Source of the DNA: Cyanidioschyzon merolae
Taxonomy: Eukaryota
NCBI GenBank assembly: GCA_000091205.1
Contig: AP006497.2
DNA length: 64,000 nt
Reading direction: 5' to 3' (one strand)
Part shown: positions 25,100-41,467 of the stretch, one piece after another
Layout: each line of letters opens with the position of its first letter
Numbering within the stretch: position 1 is the first letter of the stretch
The notes under the pieces: model-generated
Database searches by the model: none
The model's input: only the letters and a program-made list of their open reading frames with translations
What the model was told of the DNA's origin: nothing
Position numbers and translations under genes: made by a program

Positions 25100-26899
25100 G
25101 TGCATTTTCCCTTGAACACGCAGGTATCGCCGGAAGTACACAGAGGGCACGCTGCCCCAGTACATATGCAGAGGCTTGCTCCTCATATGTCGGGAGCGGA
25201 TAGCTGCCGCAACTTTGATGGGCTTGAACCCTTCCGTGACCAGCGGGAACCACGGCCGTCTGGCAGCGGCGCGAGGAGCGGCGACGCAGTGCACGCTGCG
25301 GCTGGTCCGGTCAACGACTGGGGCGGCGGCGGCGGCGGCAGCGGCAACGCCGTGCGGGATCCTGCAGACACCAGAAACCTAAGGGATGCTGGGCAACACT
25401 TTCCACAAAAGAAAAGGCGCTTGAGTGAGGGCGAGTCAGAAGCGTTGATGCGTTTTCGAGAGCTTCGCTGTGAGCGACTTGACCTGAGCGAGTTGCCCCC
25501 GTTGATGCCGGCGAACGATATGCTATCCCCGGCAGCCGCACTCACACCGTCAGGTGCTATATCGGCCACGATTTCTGAAACAGAACTGCGACTGGTGCAG
25601 ACAATCGCAGAGTTTGGACAAAATACGAATACCCCGCGAATTCTAGCGGCGATCCAGGAACATCATCAAAAGGACCTACTGGGCATGCCCGCTGGGACTA
25701 CGCTCGGGCCCAGCAACATGCCCAGTACGCTCAAGCCATCGGATTCATTGCTCTCTAATGCAGCGCCAGCGGGACTTTCTGGGACACTGGACGCGATGTC
25801 GTCGCCAGCGCTCTCTCGGGACAGCGTTCCGAACGTTCCAGACTCGGGATCGATAACGCCGCCCATGGACAGTAACGTTGAGCCGCTCATGCCCGGTTCA
25901 ACGCTGGAATGGTGTCGCCAATACGCCCGTCAGATAAGCTGCCAATATGTTGACGAGCTGCGACGAAGGATGCGGGGCTCCTGTCGACAGTGCGCGGCGC
26001 CCTACGGCTCGTGCAGTCACCGGCCAGTCGACCGCGACGCTGCGCTGGGCGAATGGAGTGCGCTGTCGCCGTCACGCCGTCGAATTGCGAAGAACAGGGA
26101 AACGGCAGCTGTCTCACGCTTCCGCAAAAAGGTGTACATGGAGAGCCTCGAGCGAGCGATTATGAACCTGGAACGAAAATATATGGAAACGAGAAATGAA
26201 CTTGCACAACTTCGCAAACTCTTTGACATGAGCGTCACACCCGTGACACCGATGCATGGACGCGCGGCGCCAGCGACGCAGCCTGAGCGCAGGGCTGAGG
26301 CGGACAGTGCCGCGCGCCCGCCCTTGGCAACAGCTGCGAGTGACGCGACAGGCGCCCTGCAACTCATGGGTGCCGTCACCGCATCCGACGCCCTAGGCAT
26401 GCTCGATGCCGACCGCAGCCCGCCAAATGTGCAGCAGAGAGCACCTGGGCCGGTCGCACTGGCTGCTGAGCCCGCGGAACCGTCACCGCGACTGCTGGAG
26501 GGTTTCCTGCGTCCGCTCCTGGCCAGTGTGGGCATCGAAGGCGAGAACGCCGCAAACGCAATCTCCGGGGCGATGACGACGGCACTCCAGGATGCACAAT
26601 CGCGCTACGCCCTGCTGCATGCGCTGCGTATGTGCGCAGGCACCGTCGCCGGCACCCATGAATCCGAAGAAAACGTGGATGCAGCCACGGACTTGACTGG
26701 GCTGGCGACCAGCCCGTGTCTTCGTCCGTCAGCAGCACGCGCTCGAGCGAATTCCTGTTCCAAGTCGCCGGTCGAGGATCTGGCTGGCGACGCTTCGCCG
26801 CTCGCCCTGGGTCGCATGCACTCGTCTCCGATGGTGTCGGCACGGGCGTCGCGCGCCTCCGGCTCCAGACCTCCGGATTCGGCATCCTCAGGGGCCTAG
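25100..26899 (+). CDS. bZIP transcription factor with long low-complexity flanks
   Basis: Basic region plus leucine zipper: RRRIAKNRETAAVSRFRKKVYMESLERAIMNLERKYMETRNELAQLRKL (N-x7-R and R-x-RKK pattern). The rest is S/P/A-rich and includes a GGC-encoded Gly run. The N-terminal boundary is uncertain. Confidence 0.55.
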   Translation: MHFPLNTQVSPEVHRGHAAPVHMQRLAPHMSGADSCRNFDGLEPFRDQREPRPSGSGARSGDAVHAAAGPVNDWGGGGGGSGNAVRDPADTRNLRDAGQHFPQKKRRLSEGESEALMRFRELRCERLDLSELPPLMPANDMLSPAAALTPSGAISATISETELRLVQTIAEFGQNTNTPRILAAIQEHHQKDLLGMPAGTTLGPSNMPSTLKPSDSLLSNAAPAGLSGTLDAMSSPALSRDSVPNVPDSGSITPPMDSNVEPLMPGSTLEWCRQYARQISCQYVDELRRRMRGSCRQCAAPYGSCSHRPVDRDAALGEWSALSPSRRRIAKNRETAAVSRFRKKVYMESLERAIMNLERKYMETRNELAQLRKLFDMSVTPVTPMHGRAAPATQPERRAEADSAARPPLATAASDATGALQLMGAVTASDALGMLDADRSPPNVQQRAPGPVALAAEPAEPSPRLLEGFLRPLLASVGIEGENAANAISGAMTTALQDAQSRYALLHALRMCAGTVAGTHESEENVDAATDLTGLATSPCLRPSAARARANSCSKSPVEDLAGDASPLALGRMHSSPMVSARASRASGSRPPDSASSGA

Positions 26900-27116
26900 A
26901 CGTTTGCTTGCAGGCCACCACGGGAGCCGCTCTCCTTGTGCATGTGCATCCATTGAGCGTTGCGGTTGTGGTTGCTGGTGTCCTCATCTGTGAGAATGAG
27001 GAGCAATGGTGATGGCGCGCTAGCAAGCCTGAAACCAATCTGCCTTTTGCCTGGCATGTTTGGCTCGCGCACGCGTACGCAGGCATCGCTTCCGTCTGTG
27101 TGCGTCTCGCGTGGCT

Positions 27117-27456
27117 CGCAGCAGCAGCAGCAGCAGCAGTAGAACACAGGCGCGAACGGCGCGAGCAGTGCCCGTCGCGGTCGGATCTCGACTCCATGCA
27201 GTCGCAGTGCGTGGTCGGGCACCAATTCCACCGGCTGCCTGGCCTTGATCGGGCGTCAGGTATGTGGTTACGGGCGAGTGCATTACGAGATTCCGCCTTG
27301 GTGCATTTTTTAGGACAGTAAGAAACCCGCTGCGAGCGATTCATTGGATACCAAAAGCAGGTCAGGAAATGCAGCTTCATGAGATACGACAGCGTCCGCC
27401 GGGTGCTGTGAAGGATTCACTCCGAACCGGAAGCGATTTCCGGAATCAGTGCACTG

Positions 27457-27495
<39 letters not shown>

Positions 27496-27595
27496 GCGGT
27501 GCGTTGATCATTTCATTGGATGCTGAAAGCGATGCAGGGAATCCGTGCAGTTAGACACAGCAGTGTCTGTGTCTGTCTGTGTGTGTGTGTGTGTC
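27117..27595. repeat. Microsatellite cluster: (CAG)6 at about 27117-27138, (CAG)15 at about 27447-27493, (GT)n at about 27565-27595
   Basis: Direct reading: cagcagcagcagcagcag, a longer CAG run, and gtctgtgtctgtctgtgtgtgtgtgtgtgtc. They lie in the convergent region between the bZIP and V-ATPase d genes. Confidence 0.9.
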
Positions 27596-27834
27596 GAGCC
27601 TCCCTGCTGCGATCACAAACGCAACATCGAGCCGATCGCAAATCCTGGGAACCACAACAACCTGGGCGCTCCTTTCGACTGCGTTTTACTCAACTGCCGG
27701 GAGCGATATGATAGCTAGCTTGTCTATCGTACCAGCAAAGGCCTGTGCACCGACTTTTGCGAATGCCTCTGCGTATCGAGACTATTTGCCCTGTAGGCAT
27801 GCACAGGATGCCAGATACAGGTGCGTCTGTCGCT

Positions 27835-28884
27835 TCAGAGAATCGGGACCACGCGACTGGCATGTGCAAATTGCTTCTGCGTAATGCATTCAGCGATCCA
27901 GGTAAGGTTCCGGATTTCCTGTTCCAGCATCCGGAAGTAAGCATAGAAGACCCCGTAGTGGAACTGGGCATCGAAAGACTCGCGCAGAAGCTTCATCTCG
28001 AATTCTAAAAACTGATCCTCCAAGCTATATTCTCCCCGTTCAGCCGCTCGCTGGAAGAGCGCTCGGTATGTACTGCTGAGGTCCAGAGCCATGGCAACCG
28101 CTTGCAAGTCGTCCGCCCTCCCTAGTCGTTGGATGATCTCGTCGTCGAGTCCACCGGGCACCCGCGGAAAGAGCATCATTCGTTCATCCTTCCGTAATGA
28201 TGTTTCCAGTGAATTCAAAGTGATGTTGATGACTCGACGATCAGCCTCGAAAGCGATGAGCGTTGCCATGATTGACCCCGTCATGCCACCGATTCGCTCC
28301 ACACAGAGCTGATAGAAATCAGTAAGGTAAGCCTTGTACAGTAGGTTGCGGATGATTTCCACATTCATCTCCGTCAGGTCATGGACATTGACGCATTCCG
28401 CAAAATAGGGCGCCAACGGCGTATCGACCAGAATCTCTCTATAGAGTTCCTCTGGCGAGTGGATTGCTGTTAACGTTGCAATACCCTCGAATAGGCCCAG
28501 TGGGTGACACTTGTCCAGCAGCTCGCTGAGGTCGCGATTCCGGAGCACACCCATGAGCAGCAGAACTAAATTGTCGATCATGTACGGATACGTCACATAG
28601 TCCAGAAAGGTGGAGAGCGGTGCGTAGGATTGCCCGCGAATGCTCCGAAAGTCGTAAACGAGGCGGTTCATGAGGCAGTCGTACAGGGCCTGGGTCTGCA
28701 GGGGGGCTGGTTCATTCTGCAGCCATAAACCGTAATCCGAACTGTTCAGAATCGTGCGCATATCTTCTGGAGACTCGCACTGAGCCAAATTCGTGTAGTC
28801 TTGGCGACGGAGTAATGAAGCCTTGAGTCCTCTCACGACAGCCTCGAGGTAGCCGTTGTCGGCGTTAAACGTAAGCATATCCAT
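27835..28884 (-). CDS. VMA6: V-type H+-ATPase V0 subunit d
   Basis: The 349-aa ORF matches subunit d end to end in length. The canonical N-terminus is MDMLTFNADNGYLEAVVRGLKASLL (cf. MLFFNVDNGYLEGLVRGFK). Downstream come YDCLMNRLVYDF, FLDYVTYPYMIDNLVLL and a conserved C-terminal half. Complete and intronless. Confidence 0.9.
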   Translation of the reverse strand: MDMLTFNADNGYLEAVVRGLKASLLRRQDYTNLAQCESPEDMRTILNSSDYGLWLQNEPAPLQTQALYDCLMNRLVYDFRSIRGQSYAPLSTFLDYVTYPYMIDNLVLLLMGVLRNRDLSELLDKCHPLGLFEGIATLTAIHSPEELYREILVDTPLAPYFAECVNVHDLTEMNVEIIRNLLYKAYLTDFYQLCVERIGGMTGSIMATLIAFEADRRVINITLNSLETSLRKDERMMLFPRVPGGLDDEIIQRLGRADDLQAVAMALDLSSTYRALFQRAAERGEYSLEDQFLEFEMKLLRESFDAQFHYGVFYAYFRMLEQEIRNLTWIAECITQKQFAHASRVVPIL

Positions 28885-30373
28885 GGTGAACGCGCGAATC
28901 AGCCGTGCTGAACGGAGTCAGCACTTGCGGCTCGCTAGCAAACGCGCAACTGCTGAGTCAGCGATCACGAAATAAACACCAAGCACACGTCCGGACGTCA
29001 ATACCAGAAAAACTCGCTAGACTCGCTGAAGCGTCCCTGGAGAGCCACACCAGAAGAGTCGGCGATGGACGCGACACGGACTCAACTGTGCAAAGTCTTG
29101 CACACGTCGGTGCAAGCCGGTGCAAACCTGCGTCAAGCGTTCCTCAGCTTTTGATACGGCTCCGGCAGATCGTTTCAGATGTTGCTCGTGGTCAGCGAGC
29201 GGCGACGATGTCTGGCGCTCGAAACAGCGTCCACCGCAGTCGCGACTTGGGTTTAAGTTTGTTAACGCTGCTACGGTTGCTGCGGTGTGTGTCCACAGAA
29301 ACAATACGAGGGATCGTTGCGTATAGACCTCGGTTCTGCAGCGATGAGCAGGAAACCTCCAATCCAGACGCCGGTGCCGAATAAGGTTCTGACCTCGAAA
29401 TCGGGTACCCCGGGTGCCTCCTATGCCAGTTTCGAACGTTTGGACGATGTCGGCGCTCACCGCCTGCTAGCCAAAAACGTTTCAGCAGTCAAGCGTGGAC
29501 ACTTTTTAATCTGGTTCACAGAAGCGCTTACCACTATTTACAAGCACTCCGAGTCTTGAGCAGCCGAGCTCTTTTGAACGCTACGCTTTCGCCTGGCCAC
29601 CGCTCAGGCACCCCGATTGTCAGAGACGCTTTCAGCGTTCTGCAACACGAGCGAGCCCCTGGTGCTGTGCGCCCCAAATCCTCAGCGGTACCATACTGGA
29701 CTGGACTGGAATGGAAAGGAATAGAATGGACAGGCTGAGCACCGTTTCCGCTTGCCGAGGCGCTTTTCGCAGGTATCTTCCGAAATGCATTATCCTGTGT
29801 CGATACCATTTCTAGTCTTTGGGGCATCATATCTAGCAGCTTGCTTCGGAAACGCCTCGCCGAACACTGGTGACGACTCTGGTCGACGGGCATTCGTATC
29901 TAGCATCTATCTTCCGGGAAGCGTCACCAAAGGCAGGTAGCATTTCTAGTCTAAGGTCCATCGTTGCTAGCAGCTCCATTCTGAAAGAGACATGGAACCC
30001 TGGTAAAAGTACTAGACTGCTGGGAATCTGTTCTAGCATCTGTCTTCTAAGAAGCGCCACTGAACGATGGCAGCCTTCCTAGTCAACGGGACTTGGTTCG
30101 GAGCACCGGCACAGCGTCGATGTGCAGACTCGCCACTATCTCAATGTTGGTGCGTTCTCGGCACGACGCGGACGGCTCGTGACGAGCTTCGGCAGTGAAG
30201 CTAGGTTTTGGTGACTGCTTCCCACGAACTTACTCTCCTAGGAATATTAACAGGGATTGAGATAAGAACGCTAGAGCTTATAACGCAGCGGTCTAATCTG
30301 AGCAGTTACGACGAGCACTCGTTCGTGTTCTTCGTGTTTAACGTGAGCACAGCTTGCGTTTTACACCCCTGCT
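28885..30373. promoter_or_regulatory. Divergent intergenic region (V-ATPase d / deaminase) containing degenerate tandem repeats
   Basis: Flanked by start codons at 28884 (minus) and 30374 (plus). It contains the ctggactggactggaatggaaaggaatagaatgg tract and the ~100-bp repeated units listed separately. Confidence 0.35.
29690..30080. repeat. Degenerate tandem repeats (units of about 50-110 bp sharing a tctagcatct(a/g)tcttc...gaagcg(t/c)cac core), plus a short GGACT/GGAAT-type tract
   Basis: catttctagtctttggggcatcatatctagcagcttgcttcggaaacgcctcgccgaacactggtgacg is related to catttctagtctaaggtccatcgttgctagcagctccattctgaaagagacatgg. cgtatctagcatctatcttccgggaagcgtcaccaaaggcag is related to ctgttctagcatctgtcttctaagaagcgccactgaacgatggcag. 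Confidence 0.45.
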
Positions 30374-30970
30374 TTGTGTATGAGCAGCAGTACGAATAGC
30401 CATTCCGGAGATGAGAAAGCTTGCACTATTGCTCCAGGTCAAGTTTTGGAAGCTTCACAGGCAACCACGGAGCAGCTGCTACGCCACGCCGTAGAACTCG
30501 CGCGTCAAGGCGTTCGCAAGCGCGCTGGCGGTCCTTTCGGTGCAGTTATAGTCCGTAAACTGCCCGCGTCTGAGCATAGTGGTAAGCAGTTCGTTGAAAT
30601 ACTCGCTTCTGGTCATAACTGCGTTTTGAAAACGCAAGATCCTACGGCGCACGCGGAGATGGTTGTGCTTCGAGAAGCTGCACAGCGACTGAAGCGTCGG
30701 AACCTCTCGGACTGCGAGCTTTATACATCTTGCTTTCCGTGCGCGATGTGCTACGGGGCCATATGGTGGGCCAAAATACCCCGTTTCTGGTATGCTTCGA
30801 GGAGTGAGGATGCCGCCGGAGCGGGTTTTGATGACGCTCGCATCTATGAATGCTTGAGAGGAACGGGTCACGCAGACTTGCGAGGTGAGCATGTAACGAT
30901 TGCGGAACACCACGAGCCCTTCGAAGAATACCTGGACGCTCTCAAACATGGTCTATCAGAACTCTATTAA
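30374..30970 (+). CDS. CMP/dCMP-type zinc deaminase (nucleoside/guanine deaminase-like or tRNA adenosine deaminase-like)
   Basis: Zinc-binding signature: HAEMVVLREAA (H-A-E) and SCFPCAMCYGAIWWAKIP (P-C-x-x-C). The ORF is 198 aa. Confidence 0.8.
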   Translation: MCMSSSTNSHSGDEKACTIAPGQVLEASQATTEQLLRHAVELARQGVRKRAGGPFGAVIVRKLPASEHSGKQFVEILASGHNCVLKTQDPTAHAEMVVLREAAQRLKRRNLSDCELYTSCFPCAMCYGAIWWAKIPRFWYASRSEDAAGAGFDDARIYECLRGTGHADLRGEHVTIAEHHEPFEEYLDALKHGLSELY

Positions 30971-31866
30971 AAATGGAATCGGATCAAAATGTGCTGGCGG
31001 ACGCTGTGATGATGCGCTAGATCGATGCTCGCGCTAGAACACGGTTTATCAGAAGTTTTGGCAGAAAGGGAATAGGATCAAGATGCAGCGGGGATTCTGT
31101 GATGATGCTCCCGCCTCTCGGTCTCCATTATCGACGCTGCATGATTGTTTGGGTATGCGACTCGTTATTGAGCGCATATGTGCGCTCAAAGCTAGCTATC
31201 AGGCGGATCACGGAACACGAGTGTCATCGGGTCGTTCGCCTCCTCAAAAAGAGGTTTGGAGGCAGTCGCCTGAGGACTTCATGGGGTGCACGCTCCGGAG
31301 CGTGCACGGAGCCGAGCGTGCCGCTCCAGGACACCGGTTGTGGACACTGGCTGAGCAGCTCTACGATTCGCGCAGTCGCATCCACCGAGTTGCAGGAAGA
31401 TTCATTGATCGTACACCATACAAAACGACGTTCGAGCTCCTTTTTGCGTCATACGGGGTGCACGAACCACCGGATTTCTGTGGTATCGCTAACGCGCTGA
31501 CGTTTGCTTACCGCACAAGTGAGATCGAGCACGAGACGCACGCCTCGACGAGAAACTGCCTCGCTTTTCGTGCTCGTGAAGACCAGGGTAGCCAAGCTCC
31601 CGCAGATCGCGATGGACGGTGCTCTCTGTGCTTTCGCAGCCACAGGAATAAAATTAGATCATACGCTCTCACCATCGCTACCTTTGGCAGAATTCATTCT
31701 TTACGTCTGAGGCGCCAACAAACGGGTTTCAGCTGCCTTCGCTACGCGTCGCTATTGAGCAGGGTTCGTCCGCGTTGGTACGTCGCCGTTTTCGCGCACA
31801 GGCGGCAACGACATTGCCGCCTCGCAGACAAGACCCGAGGCTTCGGGTGACCGATGACAGGATACG

Positions 31867-33135
31867 CTATGCAGGACGTGTTCGTCGGAAATACCACCAG
31901 CACACGGATGCACCAGTGTACGCACAGGACGCGAGAACCCCCAGCAGACCCGTGAAATAAACAATCCGCTCGGTATGCTCCATCAGAATCGCGCGCGTCT
32001 CATACCAGCGTCGGGGATGTTTGAGCGCTCCTGCCGTAGCGCTTGTGGGTGGAAAAGTGTCGCTCGCCATGCGCGCTGCAACGACGTGTGCACCACGCAG
32101 GCCGAGGTCCTCGGCGAGCACCACTTTCACGGGAATGCGCCGCAAGATCGTGCTCACACGTCCTTTTTCCCGGAAACGCTTCAGAAAATCCGACTTGCCT
32201 TCCTGGAGCCATTCGAGGTTTTTAGGAGCTATTCCGCCCGCAATATAGAGACCACTAAACGGTAGGTATTTGAGCGCTGCGTTCCCGCACTCGGTACCGT
32301 AGATATCCATCATCATACGCATCGCCTGCGCGCAAAGGCCACACTCGTACACGTAGCGAGCGATGGTTGCAGCGCCATCATTCGATTCTAGGATGGATTT
32401 ATCGATACTTGGTTGCACTTTTTCGGGGTACTTTTCCCGCAGGAATTCATAAATGTTGACGAGTCCTCGTCCGCTGACGACGCGTTCCACAGAGACCCTA
32501 TGGCCGCTGTCACCGAACTTGTTTCGCAAGTACTGCAGAAGCTCCAACTCTAGTTCCGTTATTGGCGCAAAATCTACATGACCTCCCTCGGTCGCGTGTG
32601 CCTCATAGTGCCACACGGTGGATCCCTGACCCGACACATCCGGCTGGGCGCACGCAGTGAGGTAGCACTCCCCGAGACCAGTGCCGGCTCCGACACAAGC
32701 TTTTGGCTCACCAGCACTCGGCTCGCCACGCTGCAAGACATAACACTCGTCTGGCTCCCTCAACGTGAGCAGTCCGTACCCGTTCGAAACAAAATCGTTC
32801 AAGAAACGGACGCGATCAATATGGAACGCGTCTCGCAACTCATTCGCATCCAGAATCCACTGCTGTCGGTTCGTGAACGAGACCCGGTCGGCGACGACAG
32901 GTCCCGCTACCGCAAGGCACATAGCAGCGATATAGAAGGAGGCATCGTTGAGGTGTGCACGCGCTTCCTGCACGAAAGTGTCCAGTACATCGTGGAAGCG
33001 GGAAAACTGCTCGTTCCTATACGATGTTCTGTGGACGCACGGCTGAGCGCAGACATCATCCGAGTCTGTCGCATCGAATATCGCTAGGCGAGCATTCGTG
33101 CCCCCTATATCACCTGTCACAATTAACTTGCGCAT
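31867..33135 (-). CDS. glk: Bacterial-type glucokinase (Glk / ROK-unrelated family) with a C-terminal hydrophobic tail. The ORF is open further upstream, to 33684.
   Basis: MRKLIVTGDIGGTNARLAIFD (cf. bacterial Glk LVGDVGGTNARFAL) is followed by a glucokinase-fold body: GAGTGLGECYL and the LYIAGGIAPKN region. The C-terminus carries about 25 hydrophobic residues, IVYFTGLLGVLASCAYTGASVCWWYF, followed by RRTRPA. The 183 codons upstream of this Met are open and may be an N-terminal extension or the 5'UTR. Confidence 0.8.
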   Translation of the reverse strand: MRKLIVTGDIGGTNARLAIFDATDSDDVCAQPCVHRTSYRNEQFSRFHDVLDTFVQEARAHLNDASFYIAAMCLAVAGPVVADRVSFTNRQQWILDANELRDAFHIDRVRFLNDFVSNGYGLLTLREPDECYVLQRGEPSAGEPKACVGAGTGLGECYLTACAQPDVSGQGSTVWHYEAHATEGGHVDFAPITELELELLQYLRNKFGDSGHRVSVERVVSGRGLVNIYEFLREKYPEKVQPSIDKSILESNDGAATIARYVYECGLCAQAMRMMMDIYGTECGNAALKYLPFSGLYIAGGIAPKNLEWLQEGKSDFLKRFREKGRVSTILRRIPVKVVLAEDLGLRGAHVVAARMASDTFPPTSATAGALKHPRRWYETRAILMEHTERIVYFTGLLGVLASCAYTGASVCWWYFRRTRPA

Positions 33136-36100
33136 TCCTAAAGCATGAGCCGGTAGGTTTGCAGGCACGAGCGCTCTTGCCGCAGCCGCAAAGCGATAGC
33201 GGTATTCGCAATCGCGTACAAGGTTCGTGTGGTGACGCCAGACCGGCGTCGCTTGTCGTTGCCGCACATCCCTGCTGCAACGACAAGTCCGTACAATGAC
33301 GCAGATATTTTGGTTTGAAAGAATGTTTATATGGACTATGGATATCCAGATTGCGGGGCGGGTATTGGCTTCTGGGCAAGCGTCCATTAAACTGGACCCT
33401 ACCTCCAAGTTCCATAACTTGTACTTTCTTTCGGATGCACTGATCGGTTCGAACGTTCTATCAGACGCCGAGTACCCGCATTGAGCTCCTGTCTTTGCGC
33501 TTCTACCGTTGGAGTCGATGCATCCCGAAGACAGAGCGACTTTACCATACCACTGAAGGGCGTCGGCTCGAGATGTCGTGTACCCGACGCCAGGTCGTAT
33601 CTCGTTGTATGTTCGTGCTTGGAGAGACTGTGCAACAGGCCTGCTTTCGCGGCCTTTCGCGTTAGCGCAACCTAGCTCATACAAAGAATTCTGAATACCG
33701 AGTCACCGACTCGCAGTATTGTGTCGAATACGTCGTCGGTTCGTGTAGCGGGCCTGTGCTCGGCAAACACCGGTAATGAGTGCACGAATCGACGAACCCG
33801 CGCGCTCATCTGGTTTGCCGGACCCCCGTCCTGATATGTAGAAGGAGAGTTTCGTATCCACTAGTGAGTGATGTCGTTCGTATAAAGCGATGTCAGGTGC
33901 CAGGGCTGCACGCGATGTGAACGAGCGCCCTTATCAACTACATGTACATGTAGAGGATGCAGTCACGCACGGAGATCGCTTCGTTCCTGCTGCCAGCTTG
34001 GACAGCGTAAGCATAAACCTGTCAGAATGACGGCAGTTGCGTTCCAGCAGCAGGTTCACTGTGGTCCCCAGTGAATATCTAGTGTTTCGACACGGTATAG
34101 AGCCGAGGCTAACCACATCCCACGGATCCGCTCTTTGGTGCACGAATGAGTCCCTCTGGTACGAGCCGCGGACTTGAGCCTGCAGGCATGCTCACAAATT
34201 TTGAGACATTCATGTCATTCCACTTTCTTCTCAATGCTCGTATCAGCATAGAATTCTCGTCATATACGAGACCCCGGATACTGTAATCTTTATTTCGCAT
34301 TAGGGCGTTTGTGTTCCGGGATGAAACTGAAGGTTTGTTGTCTCTGCGCTATGATTTGCATTTTCTGTCGCGCGATGAAACGGTGCAAGTCGTTGACTTC
34401 TTCTGACTCTGGTCTTCGACAGCTCCGGAATGTTGCGGCACTCGTTGTCGTGATTGTTCCATGTGGTGCCTCATCTGGGAGCGTCTTCCCGGCATCCTCC
34501 ACGCTCTCAGTGCAGCACGCTGTCGATCGGAGAAGTATATGACCTTCTTTCAGTTTCGTTCGTTTCTTCATTGGTGATGGCCCTCGTCGTTATCACTTTC
34601 AAGTTCGTATGTCGACTTGCGCAACGAGTACACGCTTTCGACGTCCGGCATTCGCAGATGTCCACCACACGCACATGCAGTATTTCTGTAAACTTCTGTG
34701 TGGTCGCTTTCTATGCGCTGCATTTACGACGGGATATCGGACGCATGGCTACTGCACCCCAGTTTACGAACCAGATGACCGTCTTTTCGCCACTCGGCAT
34801 CAGAGGAGAATGCAGATCGCCTAGATTGCATTCTGGTCAAACGAGTGACGCAGAGCACCTCAGCTGCTGGTCTCCAGAACGAGCTCTGTGTTTCAGTTAT
34901 TCAGGGAGAACGCTCAAATTCGCTCGCATATGAGTATTGTCGCCTGAAATCGTCTTTTCGCAAATGGTGAGACGAGCAGTACCATCCTCTGTCTGTTGCC
35001 TCTCTTTTTGTGTTTTCTTCGCGCTGTAAACGAACCTCGCCTGGTGGTCCTCTCTTCTGCTGCTGGAATGACGCGTCTCTGACTCCGGACTAGAGTCTGA
35101 AAAGGTAAATTCGACGTCTGAAAAACCCGGGTCCACGCGTACGAATCTTTGGTTATCTTCCAGAATGCGGAAGACTTTCGTTGTCTCCGTTCTCGCCTAG
35201 AGATATTCGGCGATGCTCGAGGTTGAACCCTGACATCGTACCCGTGCGAGAGAAAACGGAAACAGAATTGACTGTCTATGGCTTCAGCAGCTTTGATATT
35301 GGAGTTTTTCTGGTAAACCTTCCTGTTCGTTGACTTACTCCATTTCATTTCGTTCTTTTCCTACTCATGATTTCATGGTGAGGTGGAGTTCCCATGACAC
35401 CCGAGAAACTGAAAGAAACGTAACCAATTGTGAAGCCAAGCATCCTCGGGCGGGAGAGCGAACGTCTTGGACGGCGTGTACCTCTTCTGCCTTATGAATC
35501 CCGTTCTCGCCAGGTATTCGCAGTGTTGACACCCTCTTCCAACGATTTCGTAGTACAGAGAAAATGCGAAACGTGTCGGAGACGAATGCTTCAGTCAGAG
35601 AGAATCCTTCGAGGGAATTCGTCTCCTCAAGTCTGCCGCGAGCTCGACAGCCAATTTCATCTTCGGTTTTCATTGGCGATCACTTCCGGTGAAATAGGAC
35701 GTCGAACTTTCGAACGATCCGGCGGGTGCCGCACAGACAAGCTCTCTCTCTCTCTCTCGAAACGCCCTCGATTTAGTTACCATGCATCAGCTTGACTTAA
35801 TGAACGACACGAAACCCGATATTCATCAGGACGTGATTCGTTTCTGCCGTCGCCATCGTGATGGGAAGCTCCACGTGCATCTGCGTCATTCCAAAGAGAT
35901 ACGCCTTCATTGACGCTCACTGTTCGTGCCCTTCGGTTTCTTCTTCATTTCGTCCGGGTTACAAAGCACCGAATTCATCAACGCTTAACCTGAGACTCGA
36001 GCTGATACTTTTCCTGCAGTTGTTTCGGTGCCTCTTGAAACAAGCGATGACACAAGCGTAAGAAAGTTCTCATTCAGGGAAGGCAGCACGTTTTTGGGAG

Positions 36101-36764
36101 CGTTGCTCGCCCATGCTCTCGCTTTCTCGCGTGAGCGTCCTCTAGGCGTCTGTCACAAGGGAAACAAACGAGCGTGTGCCTGGCGTCAAAGGTCGCGAAA
36201 GAGAATTCTCAAAAAGTAGCAGTTCGTCAGAGCGTCTGGCTCGCTTTCCACTCCTTTGACGAGGATAGCTTCATAAGGAAGACGGAGGCTTTATCCGTTG
36301 AGGATGACGTTCCTCGAGGAAACAGCTCAGCTTCAAACTTCAGATGCGAAATTTTCCTTGCGTTACTGCTTCCCGTTCTCTCCCCGCGGTTAACTCGGAC
36401 GCTGCATCTCTCCTGCGCACCAGAGGATGCCGTACCCTTATCCAAACAGAATCATTTCGGTGTTCTCGTTGAAAAGCACCTTCGACCGCTGATTCAATAG
36501 AAACCCCCTGAAAGATCCGAAGCACCTCTGTCTTGCACCAGAAGAGACGTCCCTGTTTCAGCGCAGCGCTACGCGATGCACGGGTTGCATCCATCGCGCT
36601 CCGGCGCATGCGCGATCGATAGCGCCCAGTACTCGTGAAGCGTTCAACGCAACGTTCGTTATCCGGCAAGGCAAGGCAAGGCAAGGCCGGTACACTCCAG
36701 AGCACGATACGTGAGTTTTCAATAGAACATACTCCACATCCTTCAGATAGAGGTCAAGAGAAGC

Positions 36765-37955
36765 ATGGCGCTTGTTGCTGCGGGTTTTCGTACAGTGGTG
36801 CAGCGACGCTTTGGTAGCGCGCAAGCTGCAGCCGCTGCTGCAACAGAGTTCTTTTACGAACGAAACGGACCAGTCGACACAGTTCTAAAACGAAGATCCA
36901 TCGAAGACTCATCGTCGGGGAAGGCCCTGCCGCGGAACGCAGCTCGCGTCGAACTGCTCGCTTTTCCGCTGACGCCCTTTGATGTCGCAGCGATCGAGCG
37001 CGGCTATCGAAGCACGGGAGTGGCGGGTGTTCAAGGCATCGCCCGTGTTACAGCCGCGGCACCAGAGACCCCGTTCCAAGTGGGTGACCTGGTGTTGGCG
37101 TTGCCAGCGATGCCTGGCACCTGGCGTGATCACGCAACGGTGCCGAACGCGAGCGAAGCGTTCGTCGCTGTTCCCGCAACCTTGCGTCGTGCAATCGAGG
37201 ACAAAGTTCCCGGTATGCTTGAAAGAGCGGCAACTTTACTAGGGGCACCTGCAATGGCTTATAGGCTTCTGGAGGAGCATGGCATCCAACCCGGTGAAAC
37301 CATCCTGCTGAACGATGCCGATGGTGCGGTGGGGCTCGCCCTGGTGCAGCTCGCCAACATGCGCGGTATCAAGACGGTTTCCCTTGTCGATGATGAGATT
37401 CCCGAGGATGAATTACCACCTGAAGGCCATGTCGAATCCTATGCGGTGGTCGCTGAGCGTATTAAAGCACTCGGCAGCGATGTTGTGGTCAGCAGCTCAT
37501 TTGCCCGTCAGACGGCCACTTTTCGTGAATTAGTTTCTGAGCTTGCTGGTAATCGTGGTATGCCGCGTGTCGCTTTTAACGGATCAGGTGGTGCTTCGGC
37601 AAGGCAATTGATATCCTGTCTGCGACCGCATGGAACCCTGGTGACGTACAGTGGTCGCCGCGCTACCCAGCCCTTGGTCATTCCAACAAGCGCATTCACT
37701 GAATTTCAGCTGAATCTGAAGGGATTCAACCTCATGCTCTGGCTCGAGAATGCACCTCGAGACCAAGTCCAGGCTATGGTTGATGCGCTCGGGCAAGCGA
37801 TGACTCGCGGTGCGCTGACCGGCTGGCTCGAGCGAAAAAGCTTCGCATCCCTCCAGATCACCGACATTGCCACGATCCGATCAGGGACCAGACCTCGCCA
37901 GTTGGTCGCTATCACCGCAGCCGGGCAATCACTGGTCCAGTTAGCTGGGCCCTGA
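36765..37955 (+). CDS. MECR: Mitochondrial trans-2-enoyl-CoA/ACP reductase (MECR/Etr1-like, MDR superfamily), type II fatty-acid synthesis
   Basis: GVAGVQGIARVTAAAP...FQVGDLVLALPAMPGTWRDHATVPNASEAFVAVP matches the MECR substrate-binding region (PGTWR). A Rossmann segment GETILLNDADGAVGLALVQLANMRGIKTV follows. The N-terminus MALVAAGFRTVVQRRFGS is presequence-like. Confidence 0.8.
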   Translation: MALVAAGFRTVVQRRFGSAQAAAAAATEFFYERNGPVDTVLKRRSIEDSSSGKALPRNAARVELLAFPLTPFDVAAIERGYRSTGVAGVQGIARVTAAAPETPFQVGDLVLALPAMPGTWRDHATVPNASEAFVAVPATLRRAIEDKVPGMLERAATLLGAPAMAYRLLEEHGIQPGETILLNDADGAVGLALVQLANMRGIKTVSLVDDEIPEDELPPEGHVESYAVVAERIKALGSDVVVSSSFARQTATFRELVSELAGNRGMPRVAFNGSGGASARQLISCLRPHGTLVTYSGRRATQPLVIPTSAFTEFQLNLKGFNLMLWLENAPRDQVQAMVDALGQAMTRGALTGWLERKSFASLQITDIATIRSGTRPRQLVAITAAGQSLVQLAGP

Positions 37956-39748
37956 ACTTTGGCGATTGGAAGCAGACCCCGGAACTTACCGATGAAGGCT
38001 GTGCGCCTTCGACGGCGCCTTCGTACCGGAGCGCTGCCGTCGCGGAGCGCACCGCAGGTATCAGCAGGTACTGGATGCGTCGTGCATCGAGCGCCCGTCA
38101 CAATGAACGCACAGGTCGAATGAAGGACTCGTAGGAGGCGGCAGCGGCACTGGTGAAGAGCAGCGATCTTCAACGCGGACGCTGTCATCGGCTGGTGGCG
38201 CCCATCGTCTGCCCAAGTTGTGAGCGCGCGCACCGCGACCAGTAGTGCTATACTGATGACACTTTCCCCGCTTTACTCCTTTTCGTACGTGACTGGTGCA
38301 AGCGCGCATGCTCTGGACACGTGCAAGCCGAAATGCCGTAGCCCCCAGCGCACCGCGGAGCTTCGGATCTGGCGTGGCTCTTGAATACGAACGCATCTGG
38401 CATAGCGTCCCATTCTGGGTATTGCCGCGGCTTTATTGCCGCATTGCACATCGTAAGCTGTTCAAACCAGGTAGAGAGGAACCACCTCCGCTTCCAGGAT
38501 GTGTCGAAGGTCGCTGTCTAAAGTGCGTCCCGCTACACTTGGTATGGATACCCGAGTCGTTCGGAATCGTTCGCAGGCAGCAGCCGAGTCTACGCCACCG
38601 TGGAATCCCCCAGCGGGCTAGCGTCCTCAAGTCTACTGATTCATTTCATTTGTGCAAAATTCATGACCGGGTTCGTCCGTGTTGTGAAGATCGTGTATTG
38701 TGAGTCGAACACCGGGTGCGCAGTGTAAAGCGAACGTACCGCGTCAGTCTTACACGGTACCGGGTCGGGGCTAGCCCCTGAAGCGCTGTTTCGCTACGAA
38801 TGACGTTGATCCAGATCCCTCGTCGTTCATCGCAAACAAATACCGCGAATACGACTAGATCGCTGGTAGCGACCAAGGTCAACTTCGCACGCCCGGAAAC
38901 AGCGACCGCACCAGTGACCAGCTGCGACGTTTGGACACGGCTACGGTGCTGCAGCGGTTCCGCGAGTGCCCGCTGTCACCGTTCGAACACCCGAGCGACA
39001 CTTTGAAGACTGCCAGCCGGTTAGCGACACGTCCTGGCAGGAGTGTTCGACGAGCAGCGTTTCACGAGAAGTGAGCTGTCCAATGCTCGGTTTGCTCTAG
39101 TGTTCAGCGCTGCGTGCCGCGGGAAGCGAATGAGGAGCGCGACATCCAGTTTCCCCTGGAATCATTTGAGGCGTCTATGCTTTCCTGTGGAACGAGACTT
39201 CTCCAGTAGGGCGCTCTAGAACTGAAAGAATATACTGAGGTTTTCGTCGTCGCCAGCCTGCATATTCTTGGTGCTCCGGAGCGTAACGGAACGTCAGCAC
39301 CTCCGTCCATGCAGCTGCCTCGCCTCGGGGACGGGCAATCACCAGACAACCCATCGACATGGTCTAATAGTCGGCGTGGCAGTCAGCATACATGCTAAAT
39401 GGCCATGAACTCGAGGTTTTACAGGCACCACGATTCGCAAGTAGGTAGGCTCCGACATCGATACGGTCAACGGCAGTGAACGCTGCATGCTCATATGTGC
39501 CCCGCAGGTTGCACGTTGCAAAACCAGCAGAACCGCAGATACCAGCACGCGTGTATCGAACGACTCCTCATTGGAGTTGAATAAGAACGTAGTATCCGGG
39601 GAGCATTCGTTCCATTACCAACCGCGGATGCTTCCGTGTACGGGCGGTTACCGAACGTGGCCTCTATCGATGCAGCGCAATCGGCACCGTGCCAGGCTGG
39701 ACGCTGGTCGTCCAGTACTCCAGCGGGCGCTGCTCCAGACGGTCTACT

Positions 39749-41467
39749 TCAAACGCACTCTTGGCCGAAATCACGCGTAAAGCGCTCGTATGCTCCTAAA
39801 TCTGCTTTGCTGACAGTCGGCTTGGTATGGAGCAGTACTTCTTCGAAATCACTGTAACGGACATCGGGTACGAGCAGCTTGTCGGCTGGGACGTCGTACA
39901 GGTTCATTTCCACTGCTCCTGGTGCCGCCGGAGAGCACGGCGTCCAGAGTAGCTCTGCAGATGCAGTGTTCGTGAACCGAACACCGCGCGCCGCATTGTT
40001 GTTCGAGGATGTATCTTCGGCACCGCCGTCTCTCTGCAGGGTTCGATGGTGTGGACGCGGCGATACTTGTCGGAAATGCGTCGCCATTTGCAGGCGCCGA
40101 ATCGGCTGCATGATTGCATCACGGACAACGATTTCGATATCCGCACCGCTGTAGCCTTCAGTTACATGGGCAAGGCGCTCGAAATCGCAAGCGCTGAGAC
40201 TATGTGGTGTATCTCCGATGTGAATTTCGAACATTCTCCGACGCGAGCGTTCATCTGGAAGTGGAATGTATATCCGGCGCTCGAACCGCCGTCGAATAGC
40301 CGGATCCAGCTGCCATGGCAAATTGGTGGCGCCCAGTACCAAGACGTGCTTTCCCTCCTTACGAGTCTCATCACCAGTTGAAAGGCCTTCTTGCATCTGC
40401 ACCAAGAATTCTGTTTTGATTCTTCGAGTTGAATCAGAGTCAGATTCGGATCTGCTCGAACAGAGCGCATCCACTTCATCAATAAAGATAATAGAGGGTG
40501 CAGACTCGCGCGCCATTCGAAAGAGTTGTCGAATGAGCTTTTCTGATTCACCCTGCCATTTGCTGACCAGATCTGCAGACGACACGCTGAAAAACGATGC
40601 CGCACTTTCTGTGGCAACAGCCTTTGCAAGGTACGACTTACCGGTGCCCGGTGGGCCGTACAGCAGAATACCACGCCACGGTTCTCTCTTACCGGTAAAA
40701 AGCAACGGTAAGCGCATCGGGAGCACAACCGCTTCCTTCAGTGCCTCTTTCGCGCCGTCTAGACCAGCTACATCATTCCAGCGAACCTGGGGGCGTTCGC
40801 GAACGATCACGGACGCCAGTTGCTGGCGCAGGCGCTCGGTCTCGTCTTTGGTTGGAGCCGAGGCGGCGGTACCCGCTTTCTCAGCACCAGCGCCAGAACC
40901 GCCGCTTCCATCAGCAGGCCCTCTACCGCGGCGTCGCTCTCGAGCTGCTGCTGCTGCTGCTGCTGCTGCTGCCCCGTTCGACTCACCCGAGCCGGTGTGC
41001 GGGCTCAGGGTAGCCGCCGCCGTCGCACCTCCGTTTGTGTACGACTCGCTCTCGAAGGGCAACCCGTCCGCACCGTCGTCGCTCCCCGAGGCCTGTTCAT
41101 AGGCGCCACGCTTCAGCAGCTCCTTAATAGATTCAGCACGTGATATGTACTCACGCACACGAGTCTGTAAGAGCACCCGGGTTCTCTCGGACTTTTCCCA
41201 GCGAATCGCGGTCATCAGGTACTCGATAGCACGAAGATAGTAGTGATACGCCGCCTCAAACGTCTCATGGTCCCGTGTTCTCCGCGCCTCTCGATCAGTT
41301 TGAGTCGCTTTATTCGCGAACTCTATTCCTTTGTCCACAAACGAAGTCATTACGCTTGTAACGCGGAAAGCGTCCCCCAGGCTGCAAGCCCAGGCTTTGG
41401 CAGACAAAAACGCACTGTTTTGCCTGGACAGCACCGCGCGCGCACGCAACGCGCACCCGCTGGCCAT
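39749..41467 (-). CDS. VPS4: Vps4-type AAA ATPase (MIT domain plus AAA plus Vps4 C-terminal domain), ESCRT-III disassembly
   Basis: The MIT domain reads [77 protein letters not shown]. Walker A is [21 protein letters not shown]. Walker B is [10 protein letters not shown], then the SRC/arginine-finger region, and the Vps4 C-terminus ...[11 protein letters not shown]. The linker holds an Ala run from (GCT)n. The probable start is the Met at 41353 (MTSFVDKG). Confidence 0.85.

Follow-up and report, generated by a model that had tools for sequence, protein, structure and literature searches.

A predicted C-terminal tail anchor on the bacterial-type glucokinase of Cyanidioschyzon merolae

Is the glucokinase encoded at this locus of Cyanidioschyzon merolae a freely soluble enzyme, or is it held on the surface of an organelle by its C-terminus? 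In the window, the whole stretch of 64,000 nucleotides analysed here, an open frame runs on the minus strand over 31867-33684 and contains the glucokinase gene CMO276C. Its protein is 100% identical (422/422 aa) to XP_005537653.1 / BAM81617.1 of C. merolae 10D. The locus is a single-exon glucokinase gene of this species that had been annotated beforehand, and the locus name CMO276C is given in PMC6589524. A kinetoplastid glucokinase, suspected from GC content, was ruled out by homology search. Our overall reading, to which we give a probability of roughly 85%, is of a single-exon glucokinase with a C-terminal tail anchor and a cytosolic kinase domain, whose most likely destination is the mitochondrial outer membrane. 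The coding sequence and its catalytic domain lie at:

31867..33135, minus strand: glucokinase CMO276C, complete and intron-less coding sequence, 422 aa plus a stop codon at 31867-31869
32071..33117, minus strand: glucokinase domain with the bacterial Glk fold, residues 7-355 (Pfam PF02685, E 2.3e-85)

The catalytic body is that of a bacterial enzyme. The Pfam match is full-length for the family, scoring 286.9 bits against a cut-off of 22.1 and covering profile positions 2-313 of 314; the domain contains the motif GDIGGTNARLAIFD, and its closest relatives among solved structures are glucokinases of bacteria, with E. coli 1q18/1sz2 among them (E about 1e-36). D9, G11, G12, T13 and N14 of the ATP-binding motif (D-x-G-G-T-N) are nearly invariant in homologues. 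Invariant among 43 homologues are N113, D114, E183, G184, G185, H186 and E217, which align to the E. coli enzyme, where we take N99, D100, E157, H160 and E187 to be the glucose-binding and catalytic residues; these roles reportedly go back to Lunin et al. 2004. The AlphaFold2 (AF2) model of CMO276C has an overall pLDDT of 91, and of about 90-98 across residues 1-360. Homology and conserved residues thus identify residues 1-360 as a predicted, ordinary ATP-dependent bacterial-type glucokinase with its catalytic residues intact, which bears out the preliminary description's placing of such an enzyme in a eukaryote. Phytophthora homologues have glucose-specific ATP-dependent kinase activity, and recombinant GKIII assayed without its transmembrane domain (TMD) was active (PMC8879444).

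A long N-terminal extension had also been proposed, as the frame stays open upstream of the annotated start:

33136..33684, minus strand: 183 in-frame open codons, read here as non-coding 5' flank (no Pfam match, flat codon-position GC)

A start at M99 or further upstream would add a targeting peptide, and prokaryote-style automated gene calls on near-identical metagenome contigs do yield proteins of 433, 466 and 506 aa, in keeping with the open frame. We nevertheless regard a longer N-terminus as highly improbable. Codon-position GC in the upstream 549 nt is 0.54/0.53/0.53, against 0.615/0.455/0.607 in the coding sequence, so that the region shows no codon periodicity, and a Pfam search of its 183 codons returned no match. 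In the 77%-identical orthologue (locus L001) the ATG is preceded, 3 codons upstream, by an in-frame stop; compared with that locus the upstream region has no nucleotide similarity, which begins only inside the coding sequence. The start Met is shared with this relative and with the Cyanidium orthologue, and MR(K/R)L.V.GDIGGTN opens the 422-aa RefSeq model as well as every Cyanidiophyceae orthologue whose N-terminus is complete. CMO276C begins at the first beta-strand of the kinase, where its alignment with the bacterial Glk chain sets in at chain residue 2, and opens with the same strand and GGTN motif as bacterial Glk. Because the protein starts directly at this strand and the ATP-binding motif, it is predicted to have no N-terminal targeting peptide, and we discarded the extension.

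The neighbours of the gene (V-ATPase d, a deaminase, a zinc-ADH, Vps4 and a bZIP) are unrelated housekeeping genes, on which ground an operon-like or functional linkage was rejected. A 255-aa plus-strand ORF just downstream of CMO276C (31083-31850) was treated as spurious because it has no Pfam match and is not conserved with locus L001.

Beyond the kinase fold, the end of the protein is divided as follows:

32017..32055, minus strand: linker, residues 361-373, low-confidence and sequence-variable (AF2 pLDDT about 60)
31966..32016, minus strand: juxtamembrane charged helix RRWYETRAILMEHTER, residues 374-390, the N-terminal part of the long terminal helix
31888..31965, minus strand: predicted transmembrane tail anchor IVYFTGLLGVLASCAYTGASVCWWYF, residues 391-416, 26 uncharged residues (from translation, AF2 model and homologues)
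31870..31887, minus strand: basic C-terminal tail RRTRPA, net charge +3, predicted on the organelle or lumenal side

The hydrophobic C-terminal stretch and basic end were read correctly in the preliminary description: after the 26 uncharged residues come RRTRPA and the stop codon, the uncharged run ending 6 residues before the C-terminus. The C-terminal excess of about 100 residues held only in part. In total CMO276C exceeds E. coli Glk by 101 aa, but its residues 2-349 align with residues 2-309 of a solved bacterial chain, so about 40 aa are internal insertions and the C-terminal share is only about 60 aa. Bacterial group-A (non-ROK) glucokinases such as E. coli 1q18/1sz2 share the fold of CMO276C and its catalytic and ATP-binding residues; they are soluble and 320-332 aa long, whereas the C-terminal addition of CMO276C ends in the putative anchor. 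In the AF2 model, residues 374-419 form the terminal helix after the low-confidence linker, and segment 391-416 is helical with pLDDT 91-95. For linker residues 361-373 no sequence conservation was seen beyond Cyanidiophyceae, and the juxtamembrane pattern W..(S/T)RA....HTER is kept in the two closest relatives only. A single hydrophobic segment no more than about 30-40 residues from the C-terminus, no other transmembrane segment and no N-terminal signal or transit peptide make up the sequence profile of a tail-anchored protein, and CMO276C shows all three. From sequence, model and conservation, we infer that the linker and long C-terminal helix, with its 26 uncharged residues and RRTRPA, constitute a tail anchor.

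The hydrophobicity of this segment is marginal, and the terminal helix could instead be soluble or peripheral, serving for example in oligomerisation of a cytosolic enzyme, as reviews assume. Its Kyte-Doolittle 19-residue maximum is 1.53, where the classical threshold is 1.6; a simple Hessa-scale sum gives about +2.5 kcal/mol (+2.47), and GRAVY reaches 1.33 for all 26 aa and 1.54 for the best window of 21 aa. Residues 64-82, the only other hydropathy peak, outscore the tail on the Kyte-Doolittle measure (1.65) and are modelled by AF2 as part of a buried beta-strand of the Glk fold. On the Hessa scale, segment 391-416 is the best membrane-insertion window in the whole protein, and a tail-anchor-like end arose in 99 of 20000 shuffles of the protein (0.5%). 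A 2014 survey of C. merolae carbon enzymes in Planta is said to have assigned glycolysis to the cytosol; its fusions reportedly carried the tag at the C-terminus, where it would hide a tail anchor. A cytosolic enzyme is likewise predicted by a 2025 review, which calls the rhodophyte enzyme cytosolic and states that no localisation experiment exists for algal sugar kinases (PMC12696579); in the searchable literature on CMO276C localisation we found no experiment.

Conservation among relatives argues against a soluble helix. Of the 120 closest homologues, 89 have an uncharged stretch of at least 17 residues with K or R directly after it, a few residues from the C-terminus, and a short net-positive tail, among them red algae, an oomycete, a pelagophyte and the choanoflagellate Monosiga. 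K or R directly follows the hydrophobic run in 86 of these 89; the tails have a median length of 6 aa and a net charge of +1 to +4, positive in every case. The architecture is retained while the anchor sequence drifts freely, a pattern that points to selection for a membrane-spanning segment. In addition, the helix is set apart from the Glk fold by the variable linker, and two independent papers predicted a transmembrane helix in relatives (PMC2173943, PMC8879444). We therefore consider a protein with no membrane span unlikely. Alignment of orthologues agrees with the preliminary description in that the tail, conserved and located in the same uninterrupted frame, does not fall after an earlier stop or splice site. 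As a sequence-level prediction, the C-terminal tail-anchor signature is confirmed as real and as conserved among relatives in many protists.

What the preliminary description overstated was novelty. Kroth et al. 2008 described a predicted transmembrane helix at the C-terminus of the C. merolae glucokinase and of diatom enzymes (PMC2173943), and a 2022 paper described a predicted C-terminal transmembrane domain conserved across stramenopile GKIII (PMC8879444). The tail-anchor signature is real, ordinary and already in print since 2008, and as a finding of a genome scan CMO276C adds nothing beyond existing annotation and literature. The stramenopile glucokinases had likewise been linked to the C. 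merolae enzyme (PMC2173943, PMC8879444). Like CMO276C, stramenopile GKIII (Phytophthora PPTG_18935, diatom Phatr 48774, brown algae) is a bacterial-type Glk for which a transmembrane domain is predicted at the C-terminus. It serves as the only or the ancestral hexose kinase of organisms in which hexokinase is reportedly missing; GKIII-related sequences among the CMO276C homologues show 40-50% identity. The stramenopile genes have two conserved introns (PMC8879444) whereas CMO276C has none, and their anchors are not alignable with that of CMO276C and are often more hydrophobic.

If the tail is an anchor, the question becomes which membrane receives it. From its sequence, the marginally hydrophobic tail would suit the outer membrane of an organelle better than the ER. 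Tail-anchored proteins of the yeast ER have a GRAVY above 1.75 (PMC5450235), and the anchors of C. merolae and its two closest relatives, at 1.3-1.5, fall below this cut-off, which argues against an ER target. In plants, tail-anchored proteins of the outer mitochondrial membrane such as mitochondrial cytochrome b5 (Marty et al. 2014) have a single moderately hydrophobic TMD and a dibasic R-R/K/H-X tail in which X is not E (PMC4154396). The same design is seen in CMO276C, where RRT of RRTRPA matches the motif and adjoins a moderately hydrophobic TMD, and RR(T/P/S) occurs in both closest relatives too. The motif was defined in angiosperms and is context dependent, so the match is no proof of a mitochondrial location; it is present in only 28 of the 89 tail-anchored homologues and absent from Cyanidium and Galdieria. 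Moderate hydrophobicity, a Gly/Ala/Ser/Thr-rich anchor and a dibasic tail of charge +3 together point to the mitochondrial outer membrane as the most likely destination, by targeting rules that come from yeast, mammals and angiosperms and not from red algae.

The anchor might instead direct CMO276C to the plastid outer envelope, the ER/nuclear envelope or the single peroxisome, with the catalytic domain still in the cytosol, and we hold this to be a serious alternative at somewhat under even odds. The Arg/Thr-rich tail would also suit the RK/ST class of plastid-envelope tail anchors (PMC8644595), and in mammals a high positive tail charge favours peroxisomes (PMC5450235). Many homologue anchors are more hydrophobic (median GRAVY 1.68, maximum 2.44), 37% being at or above 1.75 and thus ER-like by the yeast rule, and for the diatom enzyme Kroth et al. 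suggested attachment to vacuolar or other cytosolic membranes (PMC2173943). Against these stands the dibasic motif shared by C. merolae and both closest relatives, with which we keep the mitochondrial outer membrane as the favoured destination. Both the tethering and the choice of membrane are what we infer here. The cells of C. merolae contain a single mitochondrion, a single plastid and a single peroxisome and can be transformed, which makes the question of the target membrane directly testable.

In the tail-anchor reading, CMO276C would enter an organelle membrane after its translation, the catalytic domain facing the cytosol, where it would phosphorylate glucose, for example that released from cytosolic floridean starch. 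A position on the mitochondrial outer membrane would give it access to mitochondrial ATP. Plant type-B hexokinases and mammalian hexokinase I/II, which are bound to the mitochondrial outer membrane and have such access, offer a functional analogy, being glucose kinases on an organelle surface with a cytosolic catalytic domain (PMC12696579). They belong to a different family, unrelated at the sequence level, and use an N-terminal anchor or VDAC binding, whereas CMO276C has a predicted C-terminal tail anchor and only a putative mitochondrial location.

More tentatively, and with a probability that we put at rather less than even, the tail anchor may go far back in evolution, in a eukaryote-wide clade of bacterial-type Glk, and dock the sole glucose kinase on the mitochondrial outer membrane. 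If so, it would have persisted in red algae, in stramenopiles and even in choanoflagellates, which have no plastid, and would represent a third independent coupling of glucose phosphorylation to mitochondrial ATP, beside the plant N-terminal anchor and animal VDAC binding. It would also have been overlooked by recent reviews, which still take the enzyme as soluble and cytosolic; the anchor, predicted in print since 2008, is ignored by that of 2025 (PMC12696579). According to published reports, red algae, diatoms and oomycetes have no hexokinase and depend on bacterial-type glucokinase (PMC2173943, PMC12696579). Given this reliance, the location of the enzyme would determine where cytosolic glucose, for example from floridean starch or chrysolaminarin, enters metabolism, and could also bear on sugar sensing in these organisms.

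An open frame on the minus strand runs from 33684 down to 31867, within which an ATG at 33135 opens the 422-residue CMO276C product. This protein is identical over its whole length (100%, 422/422) to XP_005537653.1 / BAM81617.1, the RefSeq "glucokinase [Cyanidioschyzon merolae strain 10D]", and the window is C. merolae nuclear DNA. Pfam PF02685 (Glucokinase) spans residues 7-355 end to end (E 2.3e-85), and bacterial glucokinases, E. coli Glk (1q18/1sz2) among them, are its closest relatives of solved structure (E ~1e-36). In an alignment of 43 homologues the ATP-binding motif (D9, G11, G12, T13, N14) is nearly invariant, and the sugar-binding and catalytic residues N113, D114, E183, G184, G185, H186 and E217 are invariant. 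The bacterial-type body proposed in the preliminary description is thus borne out by the full-length domain match, the nearest structures and the invariant key residues. An AlphaFold2 model built on the same alignment (mean pLDDT 91, pTM 0.82) was confident for the Glk fold over residues 1-360. Although the locus id is given in PMC6589524 under the loose term hexokinase, the protein is, judging by its family match, a bacterial-type glucokinase and not a hexokinase-family protein; the same paper labels a second locus outside the window, CMS263C, in the same way.

The N-terminus forms the first strand of the Glk fold and aligns to residue 2 of the bacterial chain, and the protein has no N-terminal targeting peptide. 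A long N-terminal extension had been considered, as the frame stays open upstream. The start methionine is however common to the Cyanidium orthologue and a 77%-identical relative (MR(K/R)L.V.GDIGGTN), and the latter carries an in-frame stop three codons upstream of its ATG. Nucleotide similarity between the window and this orthologue starts 15 nt inside the CDS, with none to its locus upstream. Codon-position GC shows a periodicity in the CDS (0.615/0.455/0.607) like that of neighbouring genes. The 549 nt upstream show a flat profile (0.541/0.533/0.527), and their translated frame has no Pfam match. The supposed extension is therefore no more than non-coding sequence in which the frame happens to stay open. 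Products of 433-506 aa in the protein collection were set aside as automated metagenome-contig calls that took earlier start codons.

The genes around CMO276C encode V-ATPase subunit d, a cytidine/dCMP deaminase, a zinc-type dehydrogenase (zinc-ADH), Vps4 and a bZIP protein, all unrelated housekeeping genes. Their order recurs on hot-spring metagenome contigs (L001-L003) carrying the 77%-identical orthologue; against L001/L002, the order bZIP, V-ATPase d, cytidine/dCMP deaminase, glucokinase, zinc-ADH, Vps4 is kept over ~25100-41467. One further frame lies in this region:

31083-31850, plus strand, 255-aa ATG-initiated ORF filling the space that separates the convergent genes for glucokinase and deaminase

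This ORF is most likely spurious, since it matches no Pfam family and its nucleotide sequence is not conserved in the orthologous metagenome locus.

Compared with E. coli Glk, CMO276C is ~100 residues longer in total. The preliminary description had placed this entire excess at the C-terminus; the total stands, but only ~60 residues are C-terminal, and ~40 are internal insertions. The AlphaFold2 model divides the C-terminal end as follows:

residues 361-373, low-confidence linker (pLDDT ~60)
residues 374-419, long terminal helix
31888-31965, minus strand, 26 consecutive uncharged residues IVYFTGLLGVLASCAYTGASVCWWYF, the second part of helix 374-419

The first part of the helix is charged (RRWYETRAILMEHTER), and after the uncharged run come RRTRPA and the stop. 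On plain hydropathy this segment is marginal: its Kyte-Doolittle 19-residue maximum is 1.53, slightly below an internal strand of the Glk fold (1.65), and its GRAVY comes to 1.33 for all 26 residues, or 1.54 for the best stretch of 21. Simple summation of Hessa biological-scale values gave ~+2.5 kcal/mol, yet this was the best window of the whole protein. When the protein was shuffled 20000 times, a tail-anchor-like end arose in 99 cases. With scores this marginal, hydropathy alone would not settle a membrane span. Within the segment, small residues lie 3-4 apart (G396, G399, S403, A405/G408), and the two closest relatives share its CWW motif; purely speculatively, these could help the helices of a dimeric enzyme to pack against each other in the membrane.

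What decides in favour of the predicted tail anchor is its conservation. Defined as an ending made of 17 or more uncharged residues in a row (hydropathy peak 1.4 or above) and a short tail, the architecture was found in 89 of the 120 closest homologues. In these 89, the tail after the run has a median of 6 residues and a net charge always of +1 to +4, its first residue being K or R in 86. They include the red algae Cyanidiococcus, Cyanidium, Galdieria, Gracilariopsis, Agarophyton, Hildenbrandia, Porphyridium, Timspurckia and Erythrolobus, as well as an oomycete, a pelagophyte and the choanoflagellate Monosiga brevicollis; tail-less homologues include Mesostigma, Tetraselmis and Eutreptiella, besides apparent fragments. 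Beyond the closest relatives the tail cannot be aligned while its physicochemical pattern is retained, which argues for selection for a membrane span. Nor is an earlier stop or splice site an issue, because tail and kinase domain share one uninterrupted frame in all Cyanidiophyceae orthologues. CMO276C is a bacterial-type glucokinase whose catalytic residues are intact and whose tail-anchor architecture is conserved, and we put the probability that it is a genuine tail-anchored membrane protein at roughly 0.85. Its insertion into the membrane of an organelle would be post-translational and would leave the kinase domain in the cytosol.

Several homologues outside the window stand out. P0101, P0108, P0114 and P0118 have no tail anchor; at the C-terminus they match Pfam PF19432 instead (RME-8 N-terminal region; residues 423-485 in P0101, E 7e-8), which may be a substitute means of membrane attachment. 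The Nothophytophthora sp. homologue (P0006, 703 aa) has two tandem glucokinase domains with the tail anchor still at its end, and reflects either the fusion of genes or the merging of gene models. The tail-anchored bacterial-type enzyme of M. brevicollis (P0036), a plastid-less organism, shares 45% identity with its red-algal counterpart and conflicts with the statement that such glucokinases occur in plastid-bearing groups only (PMC12696579).

As to the target membrane, the TMDs of yeast ER tail-anchored proteins have a GRAVY >1.75 and those of mitochondrial and peroxisomal ones a lower hydrophobicity, and a positively charged tail directs such proteins away from the ER (PMC5450235). In many plant tail-anchored proteins of the outer mitochondrial membrane, a dibasic R-R/K/H-X(not E) motif follows the TMD (PMC4154396). 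With a GRAVY of 1.3-1.5 and the tail RRTRPA of net charge +3, the C. merolae anchor fits the mitochondrial class best; the two closest relatives end in RVRRP and RLRRS. We tentatively suggest the mitochondrial outer membrane, by analogy with targeting rules from other organisms, but the dibasic motif is context dependent, is carried by no more than 28 of the 89 homologues with an anchor and is absent in Cyanidium and Galdieria. The Arg/Thr-rich tail could equally find its home in the plastid-envelope RK/ST class.

No experimental localisation was found in the literature searched. A 2014 Planta survey reportedly put tags on the C-terminus of C. merolae carbon-metabolism enzymes, which would mask a tail anchor. 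According to a 2025 review, no experimental localisation exists for algal sugar kinases; it predicts a cytosolic rhodophyte enzyme, and the anchor goes unmentioned (PMC12696579). A C-terminal transmembrane helix had already been described for diatom glucokinase, and for the C. merolae enzyme itself, by Kroth et al. 2008 (PMC2173943), and a 2022 Phytophthora study found a C-terminal TMD in all GKIII-type (stramenopile) glucokinases of oomycetes, diatoms and brown algae, terming it a conserved stramenopile feature and showing that recombinant GKIII without the tail is a glucose-specific kinase (PMC8879444). The tail-anchored bacterial-type glucokinase is thus a correct and evolutionarily conserved observation, already known both as annotation and as published prediction.
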